A stretch of DNA of 64,000 nucleotides, taken from contig CAYJTU010000001.1 of assembly GCA_964373105.1 (NCBI GenBank), positions 5,217-69,216 on the forward strand. The letters are read 5' to 3'. Each line of letters starts with the position of its first letter. Within the stretch, counting starts at the first letter, position 1. Of this stretch, positions 9,452 to 57,411 are shown one piece after another. The notes below the pieces were generated by a model that was given only the letters and a program-made list of their open reading frames with translations, did no database searches and had not been told where the DNA came from. The stretch is from an uncultured Moraxellaceae bacterium. Lineage in GTDB: Bacteria; Pseudomonadota; Gammaproteobacteria; Pseudomonadales; Moraxellaceae. A program made the position numbers and the translations under genes.

Positions 9452-10294
9452 TTAGACCGCAACGGCTGCTTTAATCGCGGGATGATGTTCATAATTGACC
9501 AGCTCTAAATCGGCATATTCAAATGCAAACAGATCTTTGATCTCAGGATTAATCTTTAAGGTCGGCAGAGCCAGCGGCTCGCGACTGAGTTGCAGTTGGG
9601 TTTGTTCAAAGTGATTGCTGTATAGATGGCTGTCGCCGCCTGTCCAGACAAACTCACCGACTTCTAGATCAGTGACTTGAGCAATTAAATGGGTGAGCAA
9701 GGCATAGCTTGCGATATTAAAGGGTACGCCTAAGAAGATATCGGCGCTGCGCTGATAAAGCTGGCAGGAGAGTTTGCCATTGGCGACATAGAACTGAAAC
9801 ATGGTATGGCAAGGCGGCAAGGCGACTTGCCCAGCTTCAGCTGGATTCCAGCCTGAGATGATCAGACGACGTGAGTCCGGGTTGGTTTTGATCTCATTGA
9901 TCAGCCAAGAAATCTGATCGAAGCCATCTTTGGCATAGCTGCCGTCGGCGTGTTTGGTTGCGCCGAAGTTACGCCATTGATGGCCGTAAACGGGCCCTAA
10001 ATCATCTTCAGCCCGTCCAAAACGTGCACATTGTTCCGCGGTTGCCCATTCGTTCCAAATGGAGACGCCATTGTCCTTGAGGTACTGGACATTGGTATCG
10101 CCTTTCAAGAACCACAGCAGTTCCACCGCGACCGATTTAAAGTGCACCCGCTTGGTGGTCAGGATTGGAAAGCCTTTTTGCAAGTCAAATCGCATTTGAT
10201 AGCCAAAAACAGAGCGCGTACCAGTGCCGGTACGGTCAGTTTTATCGACACCATGATCAAGCACATGGCGCATCAGATCGAGATAATTTTTCAT
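9452..10294 (-). CDS. thyA: Thymidylate synthase
   Basis: [30 protein letters not shown]. Confidence 0.97.
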
Positions 10295-19701: not shown

Positions 19702-21234
19702 ATGAAGTTATCAGTCGGACTGAGAGTCTCAAGCTCGTTATCGCTTACCCCCCAATTGCAGCAGGCGATCCGCCTCCTGCAACTCTCGTCACTTGAGCTC
19801 GAACAAGAAATCCAAAATCAGCTCGATAGTAATCCGCTTCTTGAGGCAGTAGATGCCTCTCCAGAAGGTCAAGCCTCTGACTCTTTAGATAATAATGTTG
19901 ATTATCAGTCGACAGAACAATCCTCTGATTACGATTCACAAAGTGATTTTCAAGACAGCGCGGTATCCGATGGTGCGTCTTCAGTTGCATTAGATGAGCA
20001 GATGGGTTTGACCCGTTTGGGGGAAGACCTACCGGTCGATACCCAGTGGGATGACGTGTTTAGTCATCAATCGACAGCGCTGGCTTCCCCTGAATTTGAT
20101 GAGCGGGAAGATACGCGGACGGTCAGTGATTCGATTTGGTCTGAATTGCGCTGGCAGTTGAACCTCACGCCATTTAGTCCGGTAGATCGGATTATGGCGG
20201 AGTGCATTATTGATGGGATTGATGAGCGTGGCTATCTAGAAGCCAGCTTAGAAGAGTTGCTTGAAGCAACCCAGAATCAACTCGATGCACTGGATCTGGA
20301 CATCGAAGAAGTCGAGCTCTCCGAGCTCGAAGTGGTTTTAAAGCGGATTCAGAATTTTGACCCTCCGGGTGTGGGCGCCCGTGACTTGAGCGAATGTCTC
20401 TGCTTACAACTACGCGCGCTGCCTGAGCATACGCCTTCGCGCCGGGATGCCCTGAATATGATGGCGCATCATGAATTATTGCTGATCAATGATATCCCGA
20501 AGCTGATGCGTCAAACGGGTTTGGATCAAGATGAGCTGCGCTCTGCCTTGGCGTTGGTGAAGTCTTTAGATCCTTATCCTGGTTTGAAGTTTCAAAACAA
20601 TGAACGTGAGCATCAAGTCCCTGATGTGATTGTTCGTAAGAAAAATGATCATTGGGAAGTGCAGCTCAACACTGATATTTTGCCCAAACTACGCGTCAAT
20701 TCCTATTACGCCAGCATGATCAAACGTGCCGACCAAAGTGAAGAAAATCAATATTTGCGCTCCCACATGCAAGAGGCGCGGAATTTTATCAAAAGTGTCG
20801 ATGAACGACATAAGACTTTACTGAAAGTATCGACGTGTATCGTTCAGCACCAGCGTGCCTTTCTTGAGCATGGTCCAGAGGCCATGAAACCCTTGATTTT
20901 GCGCGATATTGCTTTGGAAACGGAGCTGCATGAGTCGACGGTATCACGGGTTACTACGCAAAAATTCCTATTGACCCCGCGGGGCTTATTTGAGCTCAAA
21001 TATTTCTTTTCCAGCCATGTGGCGACCAGTACAGGTGGCGAGTGTTCATCGACCGCGATTCGCGCGATGATCAAGAAGATGGTTGCGGATGAGAATGTCA
21101 AAAAACCATTATCAGATAATGCATTGACCGAAAAGTTACATGAGGCGGGAATTGATGTGGCGCGCCGGACGGTTGCTAAGTATCGCGAGTCGCTGAATAT
21201 TGCGTCATCCAGCGAGCGTAAACGCTTACTGTAA
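19702..21234 (+). CDS. rpoN: RNA polymerase sigma-54 factor
   Basis: N-terminal LTPQLQQAIRLLQL, LHESTVSR and RpoN box ARRTVAKYRE. Confidence 0.98.
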   Translation: MKLSVGLRVSSSLSLTPQLQQAIRLLQLSSLELEQEIQNQLDSNPLLEAVDASPEGQASDSLDNNVDYQSTEQSSDYDSQSDFQDSAVSDGASSVALDEQMGLTRLGEDLPVDTQWDDVFSHQSTALASPEFDEREDTRTVSDSIWSELRWQLNLTPFSPVDRIMAECIIDGIDERGYLEASLEELLEATQNQLDALDLDIEEVELSELEVVLKRIQNFDPPGVGARDLSECLCLQLRALPEHTPSRRDALNMMAHHELLLINDIPKLMRQTGLDQDELRSALALVKSLDPYPGLKFQNNEREHQVPDVIVRKKNDHWEVQLNTDILPKLRVNSYYASMIKRADQSEENQYLRSHMQEARNFIKSVDERHKTLLKVSTCIVQHQRAFLEHGPEAMKPLILRDIALETELHESTVSRVTTQKFLLTPRGLFELKYFFSSHVATSTGGECSSTAIRAMIKKMVADENVKKPLSDNALTEKLHEAGIDVARRTVAKYRESLNIASSSERKRLL

Positions 21235-53947: not shown

Positions 53948-54125
53948 AAAAAGAAGTAGGTTTTTTTAAAATAGTTTATAAAGTCGTCTTTTATTGTTTT
54001 AAGAGTTATTTTTTTGCTTTAAAGATTTATTTTTATTGATAAAAATAAATCCTCAAGCAGTAGCGTCACCACTTGAGGATTCTGTGTACTTTTCGTTATC
54101 TAGACAAACCCAAGCGAGATCAAGA

Positions 54126-55124
54126 TTATTTGCCGTGCACCACGTTAGGATCAATGAAGCTGTCTGCATTGAGCAGTTGCTTATACGCCCCAGTGGTGAC
54201 GTTGAATTGGTTGACGAAATAGGTCGAACCATAGATCGAATCAAACCCTTTGCCTTTGACCATGGCTTTTTGATTGGCCGCCAGATCCAGCAAATGGGTG
54301 CCGTTCAAGAAACGTAAATAGGTTGCGGGGGCGACACCGACGCGACCTGACATGATCCGCACTGCATCGGGCTGTGTTTTAGGGTCGTGGATGTACTTCA
54401 CCACGCGGTCCCATACCTTGGTCATCTTGATCCAATCGGCACGTTTTGTCGCAAGACTGGTCGGATTGACGGCGATGCCGTCATAGATCAGCCCCGGTGC
54501 ATCTGCGGAGGTATAGAGCGGGTGAGAGCCAGCCACCGCTTTGAGGGTTTGGTTGGCAACAGGTTGCCAGACCGCGACCGCAGCAACGCTTCCTGAGGCG
54601 AGAATTTGTGGCAGTTCGTTGGTTTTGCCATTGACCAGTTTGACCGAAGATTCAGGAACACCGTATTTTTTGAGGGCGTTGACCAGTAACAAGTGATCAA
54701 CCAATCCGCGTTCCACACCCACGGACTTGCCCGCTAAATCTTTAATGGACTTAATCGCTGGTGTGCCGATGACCATGTCATTGCCACTCGAGTAGTCGGT
54801 CAGCAAGACCATGACGCCTTTGGTGCCGCCCGCGCCTGTGACTAACATATCGCCATTGGTTGCGGCGACGGCATCAAGCTTGCCAGCGGCAAAGGCATCC
54901 AGTGAGGCAGAGTAGTCAAACCATTGAAACGAGGCATCGACGCCTGCTTCTTTCAGCCAGCCTTTATCGATGGCAATTTGCCAAGCGACAAAGCCGGGCC
55001 AATCGCTATAGCCAATTTTCAACGGTGCGGCTTGGGCAACGGATGTCAGCAGTCCAGCTGCGGTGAGTACAAGCCCTGCAACCGCAGTGCGTTTGATGAA
55101 GCGTTGAGTCAATGATGTCTTCAT
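54126..55124 (-). CDS. ABC transporter substrate-binding protein (SsuA/NMT1/THI5-like)
   Basis: Signal peptide; IGYSDWPGFVAW, DYSSGND, DLAGKSVGVE, PGLIYD. Confidence 0.85.
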   Translation of the reverse strand: MKTSLTQRFIKRTAVAGLVLTAAGLLTSVAQAAPLKIGYSDWPGFVAWQIAIDKGWLKEAGVDASFQWFDYSASLDAFAAGKLDAVAATNGDMLVTGAGGTKGVMVLLTDYSSGNDMVIGTPAIKSIKDLAGKSVGVERGLVDHLLLVNALKKYGVPESSVKLVNGKTNELPQILASGSVAAVAVWQPVANQTLKAVAGSHPLYTSADAPGLIYDGIAVNPTSLATKRADWIKMTKVWDRVVKYIHDPKTQPDAVRIMSGRVGVAPATYLRFLNGTHLLDLAANQKAMVKGKGFDSIYGSTYFVNQFNVTTGAYKQLLNADSFIDPNVVHGK

Positions 55125-55225: not shown

Positions 55226-56305
55226 TTAAACTTTGTGTTCCGATGGACCAAAGGAGTTGAGTGGTCGTGCTTGCTGAGCCAATGTCAGTGTGCCGCTCTT
55301 CAGCCGTGCCTTGAGATAGCCAAAGCTTTGCGCCGTCTGGGCAAACAGATGCTCACCGGCGTTCAGCGCTGGATATTTTTGCATCGTATCTGGCGTTGCA
55401 AAAGCGGGTAAAGGTTGTACGCGGGTATGGTAGTTACAGCCAAAAAACAGCGGAAATGAATAGCGCTCAGTACTGACCTTACGCACCCGATGAGCGGTGG
55501 CGACAAACGTACCCCCACTCCAGATCTCCATGAGATCGCCGATATTGACGATAAAGGCATCCTCCATGGGCGGCGCATCAATCCATTTGCCTTCGCCATT
55601 GACCACTTCTAGTCCCGGCGCAGTGGGCAACAAAATAGTGAAGCACTCATAGTCTGTGTGCGCACCGATGCCTGGGCTATCACTGGCGCTGGCATCAAAT
55701 GGGTAGTGAATCAGACGTAATTGGGACGTGGGATTTTTGATAAAGCCATCCAGCGCATCTTCGGCTAGCCCGAGTGCGAGTGCAAAACCGTGTAAAAGGG
55801 TTTGACCCAATGCAAAGGCTGCTTGGTAATAGGTGCTGATCGCTGCTGCAAAGCCTTCCTGTTCCGGCCAGATATTGAGCCCATGCATCGGCGTCCCTGC
55901 AATCACATCAGGATCATCGACTGAATGCTCAAAGCCCAAATCAAAAGCTTCCTTACGATCGTGCTTGCCAGTGGCGAAGACTTCTTCCCCTTCAGGCACA
56001 TAACCTCTATGCGCTAGATTTCCTGAATTGCCGATGTAGTAGCGCATTTTTTCAGTCAAAGGTAGATCGAAGAAATCTCGGGTTTGCGCAATCAAGTGGC
56101 TGCGCATTAATCTGGATACGGCATGGCCTGTGATATAGAAAAATCCCACTTCACGTGCGGCTTTACCAAGGGCTTCTGCGGTGTGGAGGCGAACGGAAAG
56201 ATCAGGACTGTATAACCCTGAAATATCAATAATCGGTAATTGATCGAAATGATGCGATGTTGGTGGCGCGGTTGTTGGTGAATGTGTTGCTGGTGCATGG
56301 TACAT
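55226..56305 (-). CDS. 2-oxoglutarate/Fe(II) dioxygenase, isopenicillin N synthase-like (start MYHAP at 56305)
   Basis: LPIIDIS, GFFYITGH, HTD...H iron triad (GAHTDY, TAHRV), RYS 2OG-binding motif. Confidence 0.92.
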   Translation of the reverse strand: MYHAPATHSPTTAPPTSHHFDQLPIIDISGLYSPDLSVRLHTAEALGKAAREVGFFYITGHAVSRLMRSHLIAQTRDFFDLPLTEKMRYYIGNSGNLAHRGYVPEGEEVFATGKHDRKEAFDLGFEHSVDDPDVIAGTPMHGLNIWPEQEGFAAAISTYYQAAFALGQTLLHGFALALGLAEDALDGFIKNPTSQLRLIHYPFDASASDSPGIGAHTDYECFTILLPTAPGLEVVNGEGKWIDAPPMEDAFIVNIGDLMEIWSGGTFVATAHRVRKVSTERYSFPLFFGCNYHTRVQPLPAFATPDTMQKYPALNAGEHLFAQTAQSFGYLKARLKSGTLTLAQQARPLNSFGPSEHKV

Positions 56306-56326
56306 GGCGTAAACACTCAGACTGAA

Positions 56327-56376
56327 TCTGGTCGTCCAGAAAAAGTAAGCACCATGATGTTTGGGTCGTCCCAAAC
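56327..56376 (-). ncRNA. Guanidine-II (mini-ykkC) riboswitch
   Basis: Two hairpins with ACGA tetraloops, GUUUGGG-ACGA-CCCAAAC (56376-56359) and UCUGG-ACGA-CCAGA (56340-56327), an 18-nt linker, ending about 21 nt before the ATG. Confidence 0.85.
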
Positions 56377-56433
56377 GGTGGGTTATCGATAACGCGTGAA
56401 GTACGCTATAAACAAATCATTAATCATTATAAA

Positions 56434-56449
56434 AGCAAAGGACATGCCA
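56434..56449 (-). promoter_or_regulatory. Sigma-54 (-24/-12) promoter of the dioxygenase-SBP unit
   Basis: TGGCATGTCCTTTGCT: GG-N10-GC, close to TGGCAC-N5-TTGCW. Confidence 0.8.
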
Positions 56450-56488: not shown

Positions 56489-57360
56489 TTAAGCAATGCT
56501 GGATTCCGCGCGCTGTAAAAAAGCACTGTCATGGTGCGAAAAATGCACTTTTTCGGTGTCTCCGATCCAGCGATTCATCTGCCAAATGTCAGCCACCTGT
56601 TCGCCTGTAAAGGGGATTTGATGGGTATAACCATCAGGACCACACTCCGGTGTCATCGTACTGATTTGATAGCCTTGCGCGCGCTGTGCATCCCAGATGG
56701 CTTCCCAGCAGCGCTGGTGCGATGCGAGACAATCCGCATAAGCGGGGTCTGCAGGATGGGGTACTTGCGGGCCTTGCGGATAGCCGATTCGCCCATGGAC
56801 ATGATGACCGTGCGGGGCAAGTTCAAGGATCGTCTCCCACTCACTGTCCATCAGTCGCTCGGAAACCACGACCCAATGGCTAAAATCACAGGTGAGTTTC
56901 AGGCTGGGGACTTGACGCACGACATCACGAGTGACCCATGGATTGAAAAAAGAACGGCCGCGATGGGTCTCAAAACTACAGATCACGCCGTGTTTGTCCG
57001 CGATATCGACAGCTCGTGAGAAAAAGTCAATTTGCTGATCCAGTGACCAGGCGTCACAACCCGCCATCACATTAAAAAAGCGTGGTTTCAGGTCTTTGCC
57101 ATTGATGATTTTTTCTTCAAGATCAGTAAGGTGATCGGCGATGGTGGCATTGCGCTCAGGAACGTAACTGCCTGCCGTACAGATCTCAGCGATGAGCCCT
57201 AGACCGGATTCGGCGACTTCAATTGCAAAGCGCTCACGGGTCTTAGGATCATGCGGAATCGGGGCTTCAATGCCATCGAATTTGGCCGCGCGAACCATGC
57301 TAAAGGCTTCGGATAGTGGTCCGTTAAAGCCCCAGAAGGTTTTATACAGTTGTAGTTTCA
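56489..57360 (-). CDS. Sugar-phosphate isomerase/epimerase-like TIM-barrel protein (xylose isomerase-like); start MKLQL at 57360
   Basis: FDGIE, FETHRGR, LTCDFSHW, HVHGRIG and TPECG metal-site-like motifs. Confidence 0.8.
56522..56560. promoter_or_regulatory. Tandem NtrC-like enhancer sites
   Basis: AGCACTGTCATGGTGCG (56522-56538) and TGCACTTTTTCGGTGTC (56544-56560) versus TGCACCA-N3-TGGTGCA; about 108 and 130 bp upstream of the inferred start site. Confidence 0.6.
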
Positions 57361-57395
57361 TACGAGAACTCACAAGGTGGATGGAGTCTATATCC

Positions 57396-57411
57396 AGCAA
57401 GTTCTGTACCA
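57396..57411 (-). promoter_or_regulatory. Sigma-54 promoter of the TIM-barrel gene
   Basis: TGGTACAGAACTTGCT: GG-N10-GC, about 36 bp upstream of the ATG at 57360. Confidence 0.7.

Follow-up and report, generated by a model that had tools for sequence, protein, structure and literature searches.

Two tandem hairpins with identical ACGA loops precede a 2OG/Fe(II) dioxygenase gene in a 64-kb stretch of DNA (the window, which is the whole of the sequence analysed) from an uncultured member of the Moraxellaceae close to Aquirhabdus, the best-matching locus being 93% identical. The locus raises the question of whether these hairpins form a guanidine-II (mini-ykkC) riboswitch and, if so, what a switch of this class would control through a dioxygenase. 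The first part can be answered plainly: as the original prediction had it, the twin hairpins form a real member of the guanidine-II class of RNA switches, and thus of a known kind, as confirmed by the comparisons described below. For the second, we consider it highly probable that the switch lies in the 5' leader of a unit composed of an MgdH-family dioxygenase gene and a gene for a substrate-binding protein (SBP). The features of the locus, with the evidence for each, are the following.

56489-57361, minus strand: gene for a xylose-isomerase-like TIM-barrel protein (AP_endonuc_2); Pfam, and adjacency in 61 of 93 loci
56434-56449, minus strand: putative sigma-54-type -24/-12 promoter, TGGCATGTCCTTTGCT; match to consensus
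56359-56376, minus strand: hairpin P1, GUUUGGG-ACGA-CCCAAAC, 7 bp, its ACGA loop closed by G-C pairs; sequence, Rfam alignment and covariation in 11 distinct homologous elements
56341-56358, minus strand: 18-nt linker, AUCAUGGUGCUUACUUUU; MFE folds and direct reading of complementarity
56327-56340, minus strand: hairpin P2, UCUGG-ACGA-CCAGA, 5 bp, with an ACGA loop; sequence, Rfam alignment and covariation
56314-56318, minus strand: weak, presumed SD-like sequence GAGUG, 8 nt before the ATG; MFE structure
56296-56309, minus strand: start-codon region, cgCCAUGuaCCAUG; MFE folds
55226-56305, minus strand: gene for a 359-aa 2OG/Fe(II) dioxygenase, IPNS/EFE-like, of the MgdH family; Pfam, PDB alignment, identity and tree
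54126-55124, minus strand: gene, preceded by an SD of its own (GGGGA), for an NMT1/SsuA-type periplasmic SBP that carries a signal peptide; profile matches
54047-54082, minus strand: intrinsic-terminator-like hairpin of 16 pairs with a U-rich tail, ending the dioxygenase-SBP unit

A guanidine-II riboswitch before a dioxygenase gene

The element occupies positions 56306 to 56376, exactly the limits first assigned to it, and re-reading of the sequence also bore out the predicted stem lengths, loops and spacing. Its placement before a start codon was equally right, with 21 nt between the end of P2 and the dioxygenase ATG (56305-56303), but the strand had to be corrected to minus. Both tetraloops of the tandem hairpins are ACGA, in agreement with the ACGR loops of guanidine-II (RF01068), and GGACGACC is found in both, with two G-C pairs closing each tetraloop. 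Members of the class share 16 conserved nucleotides in all and have linkers of 7 to 40 nt (PMC5558903); all 16 are present in the window element (GG-ACGA-CC, twice), and its 18-nt linker falls inside the published range. The pattern GGACGRCC-N12-42-GGACGRCC was matched once in the window, versus 0.01 matches expected from shuffles, and exactly twice in the 3.59-Mb genome, versus none for the reversed control. Both genome matches lie directly upstream of two paralogous dioxygenase genes, which agrees with the earlier statement that a chance pair at this position was unlikely. The second one (G000:C40:9937-9986, minus strand; approximately 9937-9986 of locus L083), whose P2 is GCUUGG-ACGA-CCAAGC, stands directly before a dioxygenase gene (L083:8861-9916, minus strand) with a product 57% identical to its paralogue in the window.

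An Rfam scan of the whole window at the gathering threshold gave no Guanidine-II match. When a 401-nt segment was scanned with a permissive E-value, a full-length match was obtained (model positions 1 to 48; 28.2 bits, E = 7e-4), with a genome-wide E value of 0.0015. The covariance-model check proposed with the original prediction was thus favorable as regards the match itself, although the score remained under the 32-bit gathering score of RF01068, which is an operational cut-off and does not describe a structural feature; the second copy, with 23.3 bits, also fell below it. The low score of the window element is explained by its A-U stem pairs and by three extra linker nucleotides.

Homologues of the dioxygenase were found in 10 of the 151 Moraxellaceae genomes searched, at 13 loci, and twin GG-ACGR-CC hairpins were present just upstream in every one of the 13. 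Such hairpins were also observed upstream in three loci from Acidobacteria (L027, L035 and L072), the first of which carries an element that passes the Rfam cut-off (32.3 bits). The arrangement is thus shared by dioxygenase homologues from further genera and from a second phylum. The linkers of the homologous elements measured 10 to 29 nt, except for those at two of the 13 Moraxellaceae loci, L087 and L088, which at 58 and 87 nt exceeded the published limit of 40 nt. On the protein tree, the riboswitch-preceded dioxygenases fell into four separate clades.

When 11 distinct homologous elements were aligned, both hairpins stayed in register and compensatory changes were observed at 8 of the 15 stem pairs. 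The covariation score was 0.45, compared to 0.22 for shuffled alignments (none of 500 shuffles reached the observed value) and to 0.12 or less for slid registers. The loop and closing-pair columns were invariant or nearly so, with single G-U variants limited to outer positions in one or two rows. The complete set of 16 defining nucleotides, the linker length, the position before an ORF and the covarying hairpins before homologous dioxygenases all support the guanidine-II reading, and this comparative evidence, drawn from sequences, settles the identity of the element despite its sub-threshold score.

In other Moraxellaceae genera, guanidine-II elements of approximately 30 to 41 bits, most of them above the cut-off, precede gca, gdx or a desaturase-like gene. 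The dioxygenase-associated elements, with 23 to 32 bits, constitute a lower-scoring subset within this comparison, and standard annotation misses them because most are below Rfam's cut-off. Guanidine-II switches that directly gate MgdH-family dioxygenases are nonetheless recurrent in Moraxellaceae and Acidobacteria.

The two long-linker elements (L087:1320-1407, plus strand, and L088:2579-2695, minus strand) are guanidine-II-like and lie before mgdH/mgdL-like gene pairs; extra hairpins were noted inside their linkers, and repeated TGCACCA motifs, resembling NtrC half sites, upstream of them. Apparent twin ACGG hairpins in L008, L012, L013 and L019 were dismissed, as they are located inside the TIM-barrel coding region. 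A search for guanidine-II hairpins upstream of the TIM-barrel gene in Paraburkholderia and Pseudomonas found none.

Predicted switching and transcription

The MFE fold predicted for the leader (z = -3.0) consists of an upstream hairpin, P1, and a helix between the linker and the SD/AUG region that encloses P2. Within the linker, CAUGGUG (56356-56350) matches the start-codon region by complementarity, and two registers are available to CAUGGUG(C), one on CGCCAUG (56309-56303) and the other on GUACCAUG (56303-56296; start codon plus codons 1 to 4). The linker segment UACUU (56347-56343) can base-pair with the SD-like GAGUG and does so in the predicted OFF state. The same linker-SD topology around P2 was predicted from the MFE structures of the G087, G117 and G020 elements. 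The element is thus found in cis before an SD-like sequence and a start codon, with a predicted anti-SD-type helix and in a guanidine gene context.

According to the P0 helix model of the Pseudomonas aeruginosa switch, the anti-SD is physically drawn away from the SD when P1 and P2 dimerise head to head (PMC5558903, PMC10351892). As modelled, the window leader matches the P0 topology and would fit the published translational ON-switch mechanism, with the difference that in P. aeruginosa the SD is held by a portion of the linker together with nucleotides at the 5' end of P1, whereas in the window the linker pairs with the start codon and the SD-like region. In the absence of ligand, the linker would pair with GAGUG and the start-codon region, and the resulting helix around P2 would mask the initiation region. 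On guanidinium binding, the two ACGA loops would kiss head to head and pull the linker away, and the dioxygenase would then be translated; methylguanidine may act likewise if the analogy with Vreelandella applies. When P1 and P2 were enforced in silico, the accessibility of the initiation region barely changed (from 0.38 to 0.44), a small effect that was expected because thermodynamic folding cannot model the kissing complex. No terminator follows P2.

The window element shares with the guanidine-II switches of P. aeruginosa, Escherichia coli sugE and the cgdB-gca intergenic region of Vreelandella boliviensis the twin ACGR hairpins with two closing G-C pairs each, a variable linker, the position just before an ORF, the P0-type complementarity to the initiation region and the association with guanidine metabolism. 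It differs from canonical members in its A-U-rich stems and the resulting 28.2 bits, in its target, a dioxygenase instead of gca or gdx, and in the sigma-54-type promoter found upstream. The general picture of how guanidine-II riboswitches work is unchanged by these differences.

Transcription probably starts at this sigma-54-type promoter, with a predicted start near 56423, approximately 47 nt upstream of P1. The relaxed pattern TGGYAY-N5-TTGCW was matched 3 times in the window, compared to 0.39 expected, and the stricter TGGCAY-N5-TTGCW gave 27 matches in the genome versus 1 for a reversed control. The gene for sigma-54 itself, rpoN, is located in the same window (19729-21222, plus strand; G000:C1:24945-26438). 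A nearly identical sigma-54-type element precedes an importer operon on contig C125 (L141:798-813, plus strand), and a looser match, TGGTCTGATTTTTGCT, was observed ahead of the second riboswitch. A sigma-70 scan between the TIM-barrel gene and P1 found no promoter. These matches point to sigma-54 dependence, in which case expression would depend on nitrogen limitation together with a guanidine signal, and two-layer control is suggested, with the promoter responding to nitrogen status and the riboswitch to guanidine. A GTGC-N7-GCAC site at approximately 56547-56533 is what we take to be a permuted form of the NtrC-type consensus.

A further sigma-54-type element was observed before the TIM-barrel gene (57396-57411, minus strand). 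It lies inside the longest ORF of that gene, and for this reason translation of the gene probably begins with the ATG at 57361.

The dioxygenase and the ligand of its switch

The ATG at 56305 is the sole canonical in-frame start of the dioxygenase ORF. The protein contains the Pfam domains DIOX_N and 2OG-FeII_Oxy, and its iron/2OG motifs HxD...H and RxS are intact, with HTD, AHRV and RYS aligning with the corresponding motifs of 9OVH; it thus has the IPNS-type fold and the ligand set of the MgdH family. By sequence, the closest solved structures were 9OVH (E = 1e-64), a reconstructed ancestor among ethylene-forming enzyme (EFE) relatives (PMC12329707), and PaIPNS (PDB 6JYV; E = 1e-55). The window enzyme shares its fold and its Fe/2OG ligands with these relatives, but neither PaIPNS, the function of which is unknown, nor EFE, which acts on arginine and 2OG, informs on the substrate of the window enzyme. 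An arginine-hydroxylating, guanidine-producing EFE identity was considered and rated unlikely, given that the closest natural relatives are encoded in guanidine-degradation clusters.

Those relatives include gca-adjacent homologues in Halomonas (L050) and Salinisphaera (L079), with 56% identity. In both loci the homologue is encoded directly after gca/atzF and is followed by an MgdL-like gene, and from this arrangement the two are probably MgdH orthologues. In the tree, the window dioxygenase was placed in the same well-supported 51-row clade, which also holds proteins from Paraburkholderia, Hyphomicrobium and Acidobacteria and within which a sister relation to L050 and L079 was not resolved.

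MgdH of V. boliviensis hydroxylates methylguanidine and N,N-dimethylguanidine, and the resulting hemiaminal is cleaved by MgdL, an N-(hydroxymethyl)guanidine lyase (Sinn et al. 2025, PMC12508155). MgdH, a 39-kDa protein, carries the annotation "2OG-Fe(II) oxygenase (Isopenicillin N synthase)". Its gene comes immediately after gca, and its membership in operons with guanidine riboswitches was demonstrated in 2025 (PMC12508155). A dioxygenase had originally been singled out as the unusual target at this locus, and that peculiarity is now largely explained by the MgdH operons. The enzyme controlled here is most likely related to methylguanidine hydroxylase, and an N-alkyl guanidine is most likely its substrate, methylguanidine being the best guess from homology. 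The substrate may also differ from methylguanidine, because the partner here is a TIM-barrel protein and not MgdL, and no MgdL homologue was detected in the genome (see below).

The window module resembles the MgdH/MgdL module of V. boliviensis in its IPNS-type 2OG/Fe(II) enzyme, its control by a guanidine riboswitch and the presence of a carboxylase pathway that consumes guanidine. The two differ in that the guanidine-II element stands directly before the dioxygenase gene in the window, whereas in Vreelandella it stands before gca, with mgdH inside the operon (PMC12508155). In addition, the window module lacks MgdL and is unlinked from gca, and its partner is a non-homologous TIM-barrel protein (a beta-propeller in the second copy). 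The RNA class and the tie of the enzyme family to guanidine riboswitches, published in 2025 (PMC12508155), are therefore already known. What is new is the direct control of a TIM-associated family member and the occurrence of two paralogous riboswitch-dioxygenase modules without MgdL, together with the separation of the module from gca and, as read from the sequence, a putative sigma-54 promoter stacked on the switch.

In the proposed pathway, the dioxygenase would hydroxylate an N-alkyl guanidine with release of free guanidine, and the latter would induce a separate guanidine-I-controlled cgdAB-gca-atzF operon leading to ammonia. If the ligand of the window switch were guanidine alone, the switch would be induced by the product of the enzyme, a point that counts against this explanation. 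Induction by the substrate would make more regulatory sense, and the physiological ligand could accordingly be a mono-substituted guanidine such as methylguanidine, not free guanidine, with the dioxygenase-associated elements forming a specialised guanidine-II subgroup. In favor of this view, one side of the guanidine-II pocket is open, guanidine and methylguanidine have equal affinity for the V. boliviensis switch (KD of approximately 90 uM; PMC12508155), and the dioxygenase-associated elements score lower than the gca-, gdx- and desaturase-associated ones of the same bacterial family (23 to 32 versus 30 to 41 bits). However, the subgroup has the same GG-ACGR-CC as canonical elements and is not set apart by any sequence feature of its loops or closing pairs; A-U stem pairs and linker length, both away from the binding pocket, account for its lower scores, and dual binding, as in Vreelandella, would suffice. 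We therefore give a switch specialised for the substrate only a small chance.

Much less probable still is that the twin hairpins are a conserved leader that serves some other purpose, for instance in protein binding, in RNase or Rho entry or in transcription attenuation. The sub-threshold score would agree with such a role, as would the location, because the element separates two genes of like orientation and processing signals may be found in such intervals. Against it, invariance coincides precisely with the ACGR loops that bind guanidinium and the two G-C pairs closing each loop, with free covariation in the stems. In addition, the genes found with these elements are those of guanidine metabolism in all lineages, and P2 lacks a following terminator. 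Finally, chance occurrence, which the short and simple form of each hairpin might have suggested, is already refuted by the pattern counts (0.01 expected per window, and two genome matches before paralogues with none in the control) and by conservation with covariation in two phyla. A guanidine-II switch that responds to guanidine, and possibly also to methylguanidine, is thus the reading retained here.

Partner proteins and guanidine genes elsewhere in the genome

The TIM-barrel gene lies upstream of the riboswitch and sits outside the riboswitch-controlled unit. Among the 93 dioxygenase loci compared (L003-L096), a TIM-barrel gene adjoined the dioxygenase gene in 61, from Paraburkholderia, Pseudomonas, Acetobacteraceae and Aquirhabdus, and an MgdL-like gene did so in 25; the two were never found together. 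This mutual exclusion suggests either non-orthologous replacement or different substrates. A clade of 35 TIM-type pairs comprised nearly exclusively Pseudomonas members, plus Acetobacteraceae and one Burkholderia, and in the three loci of this clade that were scanned no guanidine riboswitch was found within 3 kb. In the genome studied here, which is 95% complete, no MgdL homologue was detected at E <= 0.01, and none adjoins either dioxygenase copy.

The second dioxygenase copy has a different partner, a 324-aa six-bladed beta-propeller protein (L083:7890-8864, minus strand) whose start overlaps the dioxygenase stop and which gave weak matches to Vgb-lyase, DUF6923 and "Pizza". An hhalign comparison of the MgdL-like profile with the beta-propeller and TIM-barrel partners revealed no similarity (probability <1%), and the TIM-barrel protein had no match in a PDB sequence search. 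We put forward tentatively, and as rather an unlikely reading, that both partners are new lyases replacing MgdL or markers of new substrate specificities; it is prompted by their distribution, which is strictly complementary to that of MgdL beside this dioxygenase family. Replacement lyases would cleave the stable N-(hydroxyalkyl)guanidine hemiaminal that the dioxygenase forms. If the partners instead mark new specificities, the genome would hold two riboswitch-gated pathways for different substituted guanidines.

Peptidyl-hydroxyglycine amidating lyase carries out a comparable hemiaminal cleavage and is also a six-bladed beta-propeller, and this shared fold provides a lead for a lyase function of the propeller partner. 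Peptide-amidating lyase was cited by the authors of the MgdH study as the only comparable chemistry (PMC12508155).

Clusters of Paraburkholderia and Trinickia, such as that on chromosome 2 of P. xenovorans LB400 (L015), contain orthologues of the window proteins (SBP, ∼65% identity; TIM-barrel protein, ∼67%; dioxygenase, ∼64%) and likewise adjoin guanidine riboswitches and cgdAB-gca genes. In these clusters, in contrast to the window, the riboswitches are of the guanidine-I class and control the SBP gene and a DUF1989-gca operon, while the TIM-barrel and dioxygenase genes abut or overlap with no riboswitch between them. The Paraburkholderia pair is situated between the guanidine-I-controlled SBP gene, which directly follows its riboswitch, and a guanidine-I-controlled DUF1989-DUF1989-carboxylase operon. 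A large and widespread group of uncharacterised gene pairs, made of a TIM-barrel protein and an IPNS-like oxygenase related to PaIPNS, is in this way tied to guanidine metabolism, and the link gives a concrete set of candidate substrates.

Downstream of the dioxygenase, the unit was taken to include the SBP gene because a strong terminator-like hairpin follows it. Riboswitch control of the SBP would be indirect at best, because its gene has its own SD and is separated from the dioxygenase gene by a 101-nt spacer. This gene was earlier described as an importer-type target. ABC importers are standard guanidine-I targets, which goes some way to explaining a target of this type, but the gene in question encodes a lone SBP, with no permease or ATPase genes adjoining it. 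Its best NCBIfam match was a "urea carboxylase-associated" binding protein, below the cut-off, and a PDB sequence search returned only distant taurine/sulfonate binders. On contig C125, the gene for a paralogue with 71% identity is followed by permease and ATPase genes, so that a full ABC importer is encoded there (G000:C125:809-3356; L141), which has no riboswitch; the orphan SBP of the window could use this importer, its likely membrane partner.

The guanidine carboxylase route is complete and is encoded on contig C45 (G000:C45:674-7513; L111), where the genes for UAAP1 and UAAP2 (CgdAB-type), a urea/guanidine carboxylase (1884 bits) and allophanate hydrolase lie behind a guanidine-I riboswitch (78.6 bits) and make up a cgdAB-gca-atzF operon with no transporter genes. 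The genome also has three SMR genes, none of which carries the twin-hairpin pattern.

The desaturase-like gene product mentioned above is a membrane protein of approximately 335 aa with the histidine boxes of fatty acid desaturases, encoded directly behind canonical guanidine-II elements in L114, L116 and L135 (Moraxellaceae genera g17). The same protein is found behind a guanidine-I riboswitch in a Methylophilus MAG (L026:1030-2210), in an operon with a metallo-beta-lactamase-fold protein and the dioxygenase. It is an uncharacterised enzyme of the guanidine regulon.
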